From positions 57,102,001 through 57,166,000 of the forward strand of contig OX597816.1 of the NCBI GenBank assembly GCA_951406725.2: DNA of 64,000 nucleotides. Direction: 5' to 3'. The stretch's first letter is position 1. Every line of letters begins with the position of its first letter. The stretch comes from Octopus vulgaris (lineage: Eukaryota). Under the pieces are notes generated by a model. The model did no database searches. It saw only the letters and a program-made list of their open reading frames with translations, and was not told where the DNA came from. The translations under genes were made by a program, and so were the position numbers. Shown here piece by piece: positions 4,185-63,778 of this stretch.

Positions 4185-4698
4185 TAACCTGACTAGAAGT
4201 GCTTTCATGTACATTGTTTTGTCTTGGTATAAAAGATAGGCCACAGCAAATACTCTGCTCAATAACACAAATTTACTTGTCAGTTGCTTGACATTAACCA
4301 GTTGAGCATGTCCCTTGGTGGTTGATGATATGTGCGTCTCTGATCACGAGCAGAAGTAATGGGTGGGGATATCATGGCTATGTGTTGAGGGGAATTCTTT
4401 GGAGTTTGGATAATTCACCTCTGAAGACATGGTTGTTTCGTTCAACATCCTTAAACAACCCATATTCAGGGACCTTTTGAGCAGGATGGGCTACTCAACC
4501 TGAAGAAAATGCTAACTGGTCCCCACCTGTTAGGTCGTGCGCTATTTCTTTTGATATGAGATCATTATGTTGTGCGCATATGATAGCGACGCATGAACCT
4601 GGTATATCCTTATCAAAAGGGTAGTCATGATGGGTAAACTGGGCTTCGTATATTTTACCCCAATGTCACTTTGATGGCATGTACTGCTCTCGCACTCA

Positions 4699-8530: not shown

Positions 8531-8700
8531 TAATCCAAACATGAAAACACAAAGTGAAAACACAACAACGCGAGGACGTGGAAAAAATATAGTATTATTG
8601 GACGCTCAGGAAGGAAGGGAAGAAGGAGGGTTTAACGTTTCGGGCGGAACTCTTCGTCAGAAACATAGGAAAAGGAAAGATCCAGAGAAGGGAAGACGGC
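8526..8700 (-). mobile_element. Penelope-like pLTR fragment, family A, with decayed hammerhead (8630-8664)
   Basis: Near-identical to 38074-38275 and 39353-39567; abuts (TA)n; minus strand reads gttt CTGACGA a gagttccgccc GAAA cg TT aaac. Confidence 0.7.
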
Positions 8701-14995: not shown

Positions 14996-15429
14996 ATACG
15001 TACATACATATGATAGCTAATTATGATGTAAGACAATGTTTGTTGATGTACTCATAAGTAAATGATGTTGATGCGGTGCGTCTAACCCTTTCAGACGACA
15101 TGTCTGTCTGGCAAATGAAGAATTGCAACACTGACCCAGACTGGCATCACGTACAGTGAGACACACCGACATACACACGCATACAGACAGACTTGGCAGA
15201 GCTACACATGTATTCCTAGTCAAGACTTTACACCAATGATTATCAAGAATATGACATCTGCTGGTGTAGTTGGGTGTGGCAAGAAATGAACGAAGAAAAA
15301 CGCTCTTTGGTGCAAAAGTCTCAAAAATTATTCATAAGCATTAGTATTAATATTTTCTCATAATATTTCGTATACTTATCCTGCATTACATCATTTCCCT
15401 CATTTATGAACACGGATATTTATTAAAAA

Positions 15430-15670
15430 AAAATTACTATTTTTAAATCTCACAAGAGATATTCAGCCACAGTACTTTGGAGTAAAGATTTTATGCCAAC
15501 ATAACATCTCCAGCTGGCTATACGACACGATGTATGTCTTTGTTCGAAAACATAAGGACACAGATCGTGCCATATAGCCAGCTGGAGACGATGTCCCCTG
15601 GGGCTAAATTACAGCAACATTCGTCCTAAACCAGGACGGCCATGTTATGTTGGCAAATAATCTTTACTGC
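15430..15670. mobile_element. Fold-back element, family F (copy of the core of 33699-34499)
   Basis: Same palindrome centre tgtctttgttcgaaaacataaggaca and arms ccagctggagacgatgtc..ctggggctaaattacagc; left arm partly deleted. Confidence 0.8.
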
Positions 15671-15729
15671 ACGGATATTGATATTTACCACGATAATTTC
15701 GGTTCCCAACTGAAAGAAGTAGACTGAAT

Positions 15730-20104: not shown

Positions 20105-20348
20105 TGTAAATGTAATATGTGACAATTATTCGGTAGCCATGATAAAACACCGAGTTTCGGATGCCGAGGTGGAAATCCACGCCGCCATCTCTTCAGTTAT
20201 CCGGCCAAAGGAAAAGCTTTCCATCTCATATTAGGATTTTTCCGATGGTCGGATAACTGAAGAGATGGCGGCGTGGATTTCCACCTCGGCATCCGAAACT
20301 TGGAGTTTTATCATGGCTACCGAATAATTGTCACATATTACAATTACA
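20105..20348. mobile_element. Penelope-like fold-back (family C) with a hammerhead in each arm, between (TA)n tracts
   Basis: Arms of about 102 bp with a 40-bp spacer; plus arm 20252-20312 reads gataa CTGAAGA gatg..gtgg attt ccac..catcc GAAA ct tgg ag TT ttatc; mirror copy at 20141-20201. Confidence 0.85.
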
Positions 20349-24144: not shown

Positions 24145-24184
24145 GATATGATATTTCGGAATAAAAATTCCTTCTTCAGATATC
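24145..24184 (-). ncRNA. Minimal type I hammerhead ribozyme (family D, copy 1)
   Basis: Minus strand: gatat CTGAAGA a ggaat tttt attcc GAAA ta TC atatc; all core bases intact, helices I and II perfectly paired, palindromic AUAU helix III. Confidence 0.8.
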
Positions 24185-28884: not shown

Positions 28885-29057
28885 TTTTAATAAATCTCAG
28901 AGCGAGTTATAAACAGTAGCTACAACACAACGTGACGTACATTTGCCATTTAAATATGGTTAACCCCTAAGGGTGCATGCTACTGTAGTTTGTAGCCCCA
29001 GGAGGACACCTCCTCCAGCTGGCCATAGACACACTTTAAATGGCAAATGTACGTCAG
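28885..29057 (-). mobile_element. Family F element with short inverted end
   Basis: Aligns with 43458-43607 (aataaatctc..taaacagta..acaacgt..atatgg..ctgtag..tagccccaggag..ctccagctggc); 22-bp IR tgacgtacatttgccatttaaa / tttaaatggcaaatgtacgtca. Confidence 0.75.
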
Positions 29058-33862: not shown

Positions 33863-34499
33863 GTTTGTCGGCAACTTCTTGCTGAACAACCACACACATG
33901 ATTTGTTTATAGTGATGGAGGGAGGGAGTGAGCTTATGTGAACATAAACCTTTGATGTAAAGATTGTTTGCCAACATAACATGGCAGTCCTGGTTTAGGA
34001 CGAATATTGCTGTAATTTAGCCCCAGGAGACATCGTCTCCAGCTGGCTATACGACACGATCTATGTCTTTTGTTCGAAAATATAAGGACACAGATCGTGT
34101 CGTATAGCTAGCTGGAGACGATGTCTCATGGGGGCTAAATTACAGCAACATTCGTCCTAAATCAGGACTGCCATGTTATGTTGGCAAACAATATTTACTC
34201 CAAAGTACTGTTGTGAAATTTTAAAATAGTAATTTTCTAACAAACGTTTGATCACTATAAACAAATCGTCTGTGTGATCGTTCGGCAAAAATTGCCGAAC
34301 CCTCATATGCCGCCAAACGATGGGAGAGTCCTGATTGTGAACGTGCGCATACACATACACACATACACACGCATTGTTTTAAAAAAATTAATAATTTTCG
34401 GGAAAATGGATATTAATTTTCACCTACTTTCTAAAGACAATAAGTTCTTCCGACAAATTCCTTTTGACTCAAATGAACTTCAACGCGCTAGAGGCAACA
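33699..34499. mobile_element. ~800-bp nested palindrome (fold-back/MITE-like) with family F core
   Basis: Outer arms tgttgcctctggcgcgttgaagttcatttgagtcaaaagg / ccttttgactcaaatgaacttcaacgcgctagaggcaaca; middle arms; inner palindrome 33963-34192; no clear TSD. Confidence 0.85.
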
Positions 34500-34739: not shown

Positions 34740-34777
34740 ATATGATATTTCGGAATAAAAATTCCTTCTTCAGATAT
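34740..34777 (-). ncRNA. Minimal type I hammerhead ribozyme (family D, copy 2)
   Basis: 34718-34777 is identical to 24124-24183. Confidence 0.8.
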
Positions 34778-38073: not shown

Positions 38074-38275
38074 AAGTTAATCCAAACATGAAAGCACACA
38101 AAAACACAACAACGCGAGGACGTGGAACAAATATAGTATTATTGGACGCTCAGGAAAGAAGGAGGGTTTAACGTTTCGAGCGGAGCTCTTCGTCAGAAAC
38201 ATAGGAGAAGGAAATATCCAGAGAAGGGAAGACAGAGGAAAAAAATCGCCAACGGTACACACGCGGTCACATTTT
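38074..38275 (-). mobile_element. Penelope-like family A with intact minimal hammerhead (38166-38200)
   Basis: gttt CTGACGA a gagc tcc gctc GAAA cg TT aaac; palindromic ACGU helix III. Confidence 0.8.
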
Positions 38276-39352: not shown

Positions 39353-39567
39353 AGTTGATCCAAACATGAAAGCACAAAGAGAAAACACAACAACGCGGGG
39401 ACGTGGAACAAATATAGTATTATTGGACGCTCAAGAAGGAAGGGAAGAAGGAAGGTTTTACGTTTCGAGCGGAGCTCTTCGCTTCGTCAGAAACACAGGA
39501 AAAGGAAAGATCCAGAGAAGGGAAGATGGAGAAAAAAAAATCGCCAACGGTACACACGCGGTCACAT
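39353..39567 (-). mobile_element. Penelope-like family A with hammerhead (39455-39494) carrying a 5-nt duplication
   Basis: Homologous to 38074-38275; cleavage triplet GUA; abuts (TA)n. Confidence 0.78.
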
Positions 39568-43379: not shown

Positions 43380-44232
43380 TATATTTAAGAGATGAGGAAT
43401 TATGTACATTATTTACATTATTTACATTTGACAGATAGTTTTCCTCATTTTGCAAGCAATAATAAATCTCTGAACGAGATGTAAACAGTAACTGCTCGAC
43501 AACGTAAAGTATACTAGCCATCTCAATATGGCTAACCACTAAGGGTGGGTGTTACTGTAGCTTTTAGCCCCAGGAGATCATCGTCTCCGGCTGGCTTTAG
43601 GCACACTTTCTGTGCCCTTATGGTATTTGCAAAAGGAGGTCATCCCTCTCTCGTAAACCTAAGTGATGCGCACGGACTGTGCGTAAACCTAAGTGATACG
43701 CACAGACAGGCAAATACCCAGAAACTGCAGTCCGTGCGTATCACTTAGGTTTACAAGAGAGGAATGACCTCCCTTTGCAAATACCATAAGGGCACAGAAA
43801 GTGTGCCTAAAGCCAGCTGGAGACGATGATCTCCTGGGGCTAAAAACTACAGTAATACCCACCCTTTGTGGTTAGCCATATTGAGATGGCTAGTATACTT
43901 TACGTTTCCTCATTTTGTTTGTTGTTAACACAACATTTCGGCTGATATACCCTCCAGCCTTCATCAGGGTCTTGGAGAAATTTCGAACCTAGGTTCTCGA
44001 TCCTAAGGTATTTTTCGATGTTATTTTTATTATTATTATTCAGGTCACTGCCTGGGGCTAGTAGCCCGCGCTCTATAATAATTAAAATAACATCGAAAAA
44101 TACCTAAGGAATGAGAACCCAGGTTCGAAATTTCCCCAAGACACCTAATGAAGGCTGGAGGGTATATCAGCCGAAACGTTGAGTTAACAACAAACAAGAT
44201 GAGGACAAATATCCACCAAATGTAAATAATTT
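43380..44232. mobile_element. Head-to-head dimer of tRNA-headed hammerhead element (family E) with nested insertion
   Basis: Arms 43907-44040 / 44075-44230; hammerheads at 43927-43971 (-) and 44140-44185 (+); left end continues at 43380-43452. Confidence 0.82.
43453..43904. mobile_element. Family F fold-back inserted into family E with a 13-bp TSD
   Basis: TSD tttcctcattttg at 43440-43452 and 43905-43917; inverted arms of about 180 bp starting at 43501. Confidence 0.85.
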
Positions 44233-44329
44233 GTTAACAGGGGTGTTGTGCATCTATGCGTGTATATCTGCAAGTATTTGGAGTCAGTGTATGTGCAGAT
44301 CCGTCTATTTTGTTTTATGTATGGAAGTT

Positions 44330-63259: not shown

Positions 63260-63399
63260 TACATTATTTACATTTGACTGTTATTGTCCTCATCTTGTTT
63301 GTTCTTAACTCAACGTTTCGGCTGATATACCTTCAAGCTTTCACCAGGTATCTTGGAGAAATTTAGAACCTGGGTGCTCATTCTTAAGGCATTTTTCGA

Positions 63400-63485
<86 letters not shown>

Positions 63486-63574
63486 TCACTGCCTGGAATC
63501 GAACTCAGAATCTTGGGGTTAGTAACCCGCGCTCTTAACTCCAAGATTCCGAGTTCGATTCCAGGCAGTGCCCC

Positions 63575-63606
<32 letters not shown>

Positions 63607-63778
63607 TCGAAAAATACCTTAGGGGTGAGAACCCCGGCTCGAAATTTTCCCCAAGACACCAAATAAAGGCTGGAGGGTATATCAGCCGAAATGTTGTGTT
63701 AACAACAAACAAGATGAGGACAAATATCCGTCAAATGTAAATAATGTATGGTACATAATTCCTCCTCTCTTAAATATA
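63260..63778. mobile_element. Head-to-head dimer of tRNA-headed hammerhead element (family E)
   Basis: Whole region is an inverted repeat; tRNA-like centre 63484-63575 (B box gagttcgattcc); (AAT)n; hammerheads at 63307-63352 (-) and 63655-63700 (+). Confidence 0.85.

Follow-up and report, generated by a model that had tools for sequence, protein, structure and literature searches.

Retrozymes and Penelope-like elements

Animal non-LTR retrozymes are non-coding tandem repeats of about 350 nt. They carry one type I hammerhead per monomer, have a short palindromic helix III and a highly paired monomer, and reach thousands of copies (PMC7229834; bioRxiv 10.64898/2026.07.22.740005). Mussel retrozymes of 350-390 nt occur as circles (Cervera and de la Pena, 2020, PMC7229834). 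In vitro cleavage was found in one of nine predicted Xenopus retrozyme dimers, and animal retrozymes were argued to be non-autonomous Penelope-like elements (PLEs) (Li et al., 2026, bioRxiv 10.64898/2026.07.22.740005). PLEs are recognised by copies in partial tandem, by an accompanying inverted copy and by a tail of 30-40 bp on one side (Craig et al., PMC8557442). PLE hammerheads show U3-A8 cores and a palindromic helix III, act as dimers with low in vitro activity, and occur in pairs, on opposite strands, 100-700 bp from each other (Cervera and de la Pena, PMC4209133). A PLE protein nicks and extends both DNA strands. The tail of Poseidon_Ac is bounded by two internal reverse transcriptase (RT) start sites, and a protein-binding motif has been proposed within a stretch of 172 nt that surrounds the hammerhead and continues beyond it on the 3' side. 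The RNA 3' of the hammerhead is needed, while hammerhead cleavage is dispensable in vitro (Frangieh et al., PMC11167929).

The retrozyme traits listed first are common to a family of Octopus vulgaris that carries a motif termed F, and this family is very probably a PLE-type non-LTR retrozyme. Compared with the animal retrozymes as described in the two reports, it consists mostly of dispersed truncated fold-backs with PLE ends, has many variant hammerhead cores (U3-A8, C4), and holds a conserved downstream domain and a putative promoter box. Tandem and inverted truncated copies as well as AT-rich and (TA)n targets are shared with the PLEs of the cited accounts (PMC11167929; PMC8557442; PMC4209133). 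A hammerhead, a structured region and two ends separated by a tail are shared with the pLTR/tail of Poseidon_Ac, as far as it is described. The F family has no ORF, whereas the Poseidon_Ac region is coding, and its tail measures about 45-55 nt against the published 30-40 bp. No sequence similarity of the F family to any PLE was found.

Motif F is a genuine structured RNA domain, apparently undescribed, and does not stand in for a hammerhead. A literature search that did not extend to Repbase and subscription journals yielded no paper with the F core motif and none combining retrozymes with Tx1; supplements and Repbase could hold families with the motif. Hammerheads and retrozymes are absent from the main text of a 2026 octopus repeat annotation (PMC13282606).

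Monomer and subfamilies

Motif F is part of a larger monomer of 350-400 nt. The order within the monomer is an ATCAGT box, an ATCG start (subfamilies 1, 2 and 6), a hammerhead, domain F, end A, a tail and end B. Head-to-tail monomers measure 351-357 nt in subfamilies 1 and 2, about 401 nt in subfamily 3 and 362 nt in subfamily 5, in agreement with the non-coding head-to-tail monomers of about 150-400 nt that define non-LTR retrozymes. By-eye translation from the hammerhead onward met stops and revealed no relic ORF. Tandem monomers are usually accompanied by an inverted 5'-truncated copy. Subfamily 4 was recognised from locus L128 and subfamily 5 from locus L159, the copies of the latter being 96-98% identical. 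A sixth subfamily and a variant of the internal loop were located beside a LINE. In circular folds of six monomers the hammerhead (sense) strand was lower in energy in all six, and the sequence just after one cut site paired with the sequence just before the next. The F monomer is present as contigs in four sequencing runs guessed to be RNA, which are silent on level, ends, strand and circles.

Over the 2.8-Gb assembly, 4,800 exact matches to a strict F core pattern and 6,925 to a widened pattern were counted, with none for the reversed-pattern control. A metagenome scan for F gave 12 matches, all GC-rich and without the fold, and a viral scan gave a single chance match.

Copies in the window

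The window is the analysed stretch of 64,000 nt of O. vulgaris DNA. A preliminary description placed four copies of motif F in it, and these are found at the places given, with the hairpin variants quoted there. The window copies hold truncated forms of the monomer. Matches of the covariance model lie at 43459-43629, 43778-43949, 28887-29057, 33906-34240 and 15440-15710.

The insertion at 43453..43904 (subfamily 1) is composed of two 5'-truncated monomer ends, head to head. The 13-bp target-site duplication reported for it is confirmed: TTTCCTCATTTTG occurs on the left (43440..43452, plus strand) and on the right (43905..43917, plus strand). The left arm (43453..43685, sense on minus) begins with a remnant of the hammerhead cleavage site, includes domain F and reaches end B. 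Only this arm has the PLE-type tail between ends A and B (43453..43500, minus), which contains the last hairpin (43466-43480) and the 3' strand of a 7-bp long helix (43486-43492); the 5' strand of this helix lies at 43551..43557 (minus). The F core hairpin of the left arm (43566..43596, minus) shows one internal-loop change. The right arm (43706..43904, sense on plus) terminates at end A. Its plus strand holds a hairpin upstream of the F core (43791..43807), the F core hairpin itself (43811..43841), with covarying stems of 4 and 5 bp and a 4x3 internal loop AGCU/UGG, and two hairpins inside the long helix (43859..43892).

The copy of subfamily 2 (28887..29057, minus) comprises an arm to end B and a short inverted piece to end A, and subfamily 3 is represented by a fold-back at 33963..34227. 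Truncation removed the hammerhead from both. Another copy of subfamily 3, with an internal deletion in the left arm, was delimited by eye and with the covariance model (15421..15669); a 10-bp direct repeat, read by eye, flanks it at 15411-15420 and 15670-15679.

The F copy at 43453..43904 lies within the left arm of another, unrelated hammerhead fold-back (window 43405-44235), and its 13-bp duplication belongs to that host arm. The host fold-back has hammerhead cores at 43936-43967 (minus) and 44145-44176 (plus) and a relative at 63284-63729. Further hammerhead-core families outside F occur in the window at 8638-8660, 38174-38196, 39463-39490, 20155-20298, 24154-24179 and 34748-34773.

The hammerhead of the family

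A full minimal type I hammerhead, with core and three helices as in non-LTR retrozymes, was found upstream of 66 of 263 distinct F cores in a search window of 60-95 nt from the core. The remaining cores without a hammerhead are mostly truncated. In 64 of the 66 copies the distance between hammerhead and core is 77-81 nt. Positions 3/8 are C-G in 48, U-A in 12, U-G in 4 and C-A in 2 copies, so that 64 of 66 retain the pair. At position 4, 38 copies have U and 27 have C. A perfect palindrome forms helix III in 46 hammerheads but not in the other 20, and helix I shows double changes at four of six pairs. The hammerhead of subfamily 5 combines U3-A8 with the palindrome. Rfam gives the hammerhead of the family no score.

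Motif F had been suspected to occupy the place of a hammerhead, a suggestion that is refuted by the family's own hammerhead at its constant distance upstream. The suggestion arose because truncation has removed the hammerhead from the window copies, with one exception. The 3' half of the minimal type I hammerhead is preserved at 43709..43738 (plus), inside the coordinates for which a replacement had been claimed. It consists of part of helix II, GAAA, the palindromic helix III and a helix I strand, with a predicted cut after 43732; the 5' core of this copy was removed by truncation.

Fold and covariation of domain F

Twenty-three copies, chosen as complete representatives of five subfamilies, were aligned (alignment A2). 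A seven-helix model of F pairs 90.3% of the cells, compared with 33-47% in slid controls. Twelve of 36 pairs change on both sides, a value reached by 3 of 500 shuffles; the copies are related, so that the covariation reflects a handful of independent events and carries no significance test. The proposed structured RNA with covarying stems is thus borne out across five subfamilies. Three hairpins had been described as surviving sequence change, and their stems do covary. The proposed correspondence of CCAC/GTGG with ACCC/GGGT, however, slides in register and concerns the weakest helix (78% paired).

The internal loop of the core hairpin reads AGCU on one side and UGG on the other, each in 156 of 165 cores. 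The closing pairs exchange (C-G/U-A 134/26; G-C/A-U 132/28) in these 165 cores, which were selected by a pattern that required the stems. A loop variant with UUCU or AUCU occurs at four loci. AGCU is not strictly required, since this variant keeps normal insertion ends. The altered-loop F variant (L289, L291, L292, L295, L382, L385) was found solely beside the LINE.

CAGY pairs with a downstream RCTG strand in the tail, forming the long helix, in which three of seven pairs covary and which RNAalifold predicts unaided. It competes with a pseudoknot between GCTG and CAGY that the preliminary description had considered. The pseudoknot shows no double change in alignment A1 and one, in a single sequence, in alignment A2, and of its four pairs, two are broken in two of three subfamily-5 rows; it is not supported. 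Folding z-scores of domain F are modest and strand-neutral (sense -0.8 to -4.2, antisense -1.8 to -3.3).

Comparison with Rfam, a check named in the preliminary description, gave no match for F. In the window, only sub-threshold look-alikes of microRNA-type hairpins were seen among the matches listed (150 of 184), and a dimer of the monomer had no match at E up to 10. The covariance models of HDV, twister, twister-sister, pistol, hatchet and hairpin ribozymes matched neither the dimer (E<=10) nor the window, among the same listed matches. Inspection by eye likewise gave no fit to the consensus of these six ribozymes (HDV, twister, twister-sister, pistol, hatchet, hairpin) or of SECIS, SRP and the tRNA A-box.

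Insertion anatomy

Arms of the family end at two sites. Site A lies 75-100 nt and site B 125-165 nt from the start of the F core, so that the ends are about 45-55 nt apart. Of 270 arm ends, 108 fall at A and 124 at B, 28 read through and 10 are of other kinds. Among 85 fold-backs, 75 combine one end A with one end B, one is AA, one is BB and eight have an unclassed end, in a set biased by two search queries that themselves had the A+B layout. The same layout was seen by eye in 22 of 23 loci whose query match covers the B arm alone and in 11 of 14 loci chosen by pattern.

Fold-back insertions are flanked by target-site duplications of 12-13 bp. Twenty-four of the 85 fold-backs sit in microsatellites. 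At 47 of the 61 other insertion sites, duplications of at least 8 bp were found, with a mode of 13-14 when one mismatch was allowed. Partial tandems with an inverted 5'-truncated copy, a PLE trait, are represented by the 85 fold-backs; two alternative ends and a one-sided tail, another such trait, are likewise present, with a tail that exceeds the published 30-40 bp. The retrotransposition suspected earlier is therefore upheld and is of the PLE type, as judged by tandems, inverted truncated copies, duplications of 12-13 bp and two 3' ends.

A putative promoter box and snRNA genes

The proximal sequence element of snRNA genes is placed about 60 bp upstream of the start (PMC4494074). In O. vulgaris, the box RTCAGT occurs at -57 to -59 in all 19 distinct U1 upstream sequences and at -57 to -60 in 14 of 17 U2 upstreams, one of the 14 being a one-base variant. 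The three U2 upstreams without it have a LINE tail or another repeat upstream. None of 20 U6 loci has the box. The U6 genes of a tandem cluster (L363-L367) carry a TATA-like box and lack the ATCAGT box of U1 and U2, and most other U6 matches resemble retrocopies sharing a 3' tail.

The same box at the same distance is found in the F monomer, at -56 to -61 from ATCG in most read-through monomers of subfamilies 1 and 2. ATCAGT is kept in subfamilies 3 and 4, and subfamily 5 has a variant; subfamilies 3-5 are without ATCG. The box overlaps a predicted hairpin. Box, spacing and a leader captured by a LINE (see below) suggest that it is a U1/U2-type promoter element. Inspection by eye for an snRNA 3' box after end B gave no consistent occurrence.

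Newt satellite 2 has an snRNA promoter (Coats et al., 1994, as cited in PMC2220036). It would thus share with the F family the combination of a tandemly repeated hammerhead and an snRNA-type promoter inside the repeat. It belongs to another phylum, and its sequence is unrelated as far as tested. The F family gives a concrete, putative promoter for an invertebrate retrozyme.

A LINE at the predicted start of F and the start of U2

Three loci run past end B and then into a LINE of about 5.5 kb. It encodes a CCHC ORF1 and an ORF2 with AP endonuclease, RT and zf-RVT domains. F resumes after the LINE, with a duplication of 14-17 bp of F's own sequence. A query with the LINE 3' end gave 41 matches, of which the best 30, query locus included, were inspected. 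Nineteen of these 30 are followed by F at the target site, five by the beginning of U2 snRNA (Rfam confirmed two of them as U2), three by an F-type duplication and another LINE head, and three by other sequence. On the 5' side, a full-length LINE head stands right after the F upstream region and the duplication in 10 of 20 loci. The target shared by F and U2 is ATCG-N5-YGG.

All three full-length LINEs in U2 genes have an extra F-type leader of 14 nt, starting at ATCG, after the U2 duplication (L375 4270-4295, L376, L377 2095-2120). This leader would record where the source transcript began. The three insertions are on two chromosomes and have two promoter types. They may descend from one source copy.

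Tx1-clade elements target transposons, satellites and snRNA (PMC4494074). The AP endonuclease and RT in ORF2, the CCHC ORF1 and the target specificity point to a Tx1-clade membership of the LINE. A homologue search with its protein returned no clade names, the closest named homologue being from Argonauta. The domain set, with zf-RVT in ORF2, is common to Keno (U2), Tx1L (Tx1D) and Tx1-Mar as described in PMC4494074 and PMC4640811, and target-specific Tx1-clade LINEs likewise keep to one target, in a repeat or an snRNA gene, and insert in tandem. The LINE differs from Keno, Tx1L and Tx1-Mar in that its main target is a retrozyme and its U2 flank starts from nucleotide 1. U2 downstream of Utopia starts at nucleotide 39, and the 3' flank is stated to equal that of Keno (PMC4640811). 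The U2 site of the LINE is therefore different from that of Utopia and Keno.

The best-matching LINE copies are 95-98% identical. Copies at L274, L275, L276 and L375-L394 sit at the ATCG of F monomers and U2 genes, are often in tandem and represent at least two related families.

Proposed role of domain F

A borrowed Penelope-like reverse transcriptase-endonuclease probably binds to domain F, which would determine where copying starts. This assignment is made by analogy: recruitment of a partner RT is likely because F occupies the interval of the protein-binding and priming region of Poseidon_Ac (PMC11167929). In the proposed cycle, Pol II would start at ATCG, about 57-60 nt downstream of the U1/U2-type box, and read into the next monomer. 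Two hammerheads would pair via the palindromic helix III and excise a unit-length RNA, whose two ends would pair with each other and favour circles. The partner protein would bind F, make nicks in the two strands of AT-rich DNA at a distance of 12-13 bp, and prime two cDNAs, one starting at A and one at B. The two cDNAs would then join head to head to form the fold-back. The LINE at the ATCG site would likely be transcribed from the promoter of its host. Several observations count against parts of this scheme. The finding of no own-end F among 50 GIY-YIG loci, the loop variant and the modest z-scores speak against the recruitment of RT by F, and C4 in 27 of 66 and an imperfect palindrome in 20 of 66 hammerheads speak against the proposed explanation. 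Further points against it are that eight of nine predicted Xenopus dimers stayed uncleaved in vitro, that the covariation comes from about five related subfamilies, that the A-B distance exceeds the published tail, that the box overlaps a predicted hairpin and that subfamilies 3-5 are without ATCG.

The preliminary description regarded F as a candidate structured RNA or ribozyme. A covarying structured RNA is what was found, but the ribozyme argument, drawn from the hammerhead position, fails. A new small ribozyme beside the hammerhead, cutting or ligating RNA near ends A and B, would fit the covarying multi-helix fold, the conservation of the internal loop and the lack of an Rfam match, and the C4 hammerhead cores of some subfamilies may be weak. 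Such an activity is very improbable, given that a covarying hammerhead is already present at a fixed distance, that internal RT initiation explains two ends and a tail without RNA cleavage (PMC11167929), that the ribozyme-like pseudoknot is unsupported, and that the loop differs in one mobile variant. F may instead be scaffolding for a compact, stable circular RNA or for host-protein binding, with local sequence setting the RT starts. The entire monomer is highly paired and covarying beyond F, strong self-pairing is predicted for retrozyme circles (PMC7229834), and an internal-loop variant exists, all of which suits a scaffold. This explanation is nevertheless unlikely: unpaired loop bases are kept in 156 of 165 cores while the flanking pairs exchange, and the long helix brackets end A and takes in the tail.

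Long inverted arms and, in subfamilies 1-4, a CAGCTG palindrome in the core would fit a DNA element, either MITE-like fold-backs of a DNA transposon or a transcription-factor site. The arms, however, are unequal, and their 5' truncation points differ from locus to locus; tandems are present and the duplications vary in length. Moreover, G-U pairs suit one strand, the sense-strand circular folds are lower in energy in six of six monomers, and subfamilies 5 and 6 keep the pairing without CAGCTG; a DNA element is hardly to be expected. The LINE joined to F in 19 of the 30 best copies could make F a SINE-like passenger of an L1/Tx1-type LINE. Yet the F monomer is split by the LINE, with 14-17 bp of F sequence duplicated, and F copies have no LINE 3' tail, are inserted in AT-rich DNA instead of at ATCG and end at A or B. 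No F insertion at ATCG with a LINE tail was found among the 85 fold-backs, and a passenger status is extremely improbable.

The putative recruitment of a PLE reverse transcriptase by F bears on a wider question. PLE reverse transcriptases are the sister group of telomerase, and their RNA recognition and internal start could be approached through this family, in which a covarying domain of small size occurs together with two start sites that have been mapped and with a rule of one end of each kind per insertion. A parasitism of three tiers would result: a PLE, a retrozyme with an snRNA-type promoter, and a LINE at the start site of retrozyme and U2.

Search for the autonomous partner

Fifty GIY-YIG loci, chosen from 6,136 candidates and belonging to a small number of related families, were searched for F with blastn, nhmmer and two covariance models, and none has F at the own end of the element. 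Two of them, L234 and L159, contain F copies that look incidental. The starts of the published octopus Naiad consensus sequences contained no core F motif, in a text whose line breaks may hide a match.

Other PLEs were noted in the same genome. An autonomous family at L234 has a hammerhead-like core (4307-4345) with C4, a variant common to many F copies. A young family (L228:1245-3587 and further genome matches) shows many intact frames of 781 aa with RT and GIY-YIG domains. Its 3' region is without domain F and bears CCAAT/CRE-like repeats and a U3-A8 hammerhead about 75 nt from the end.
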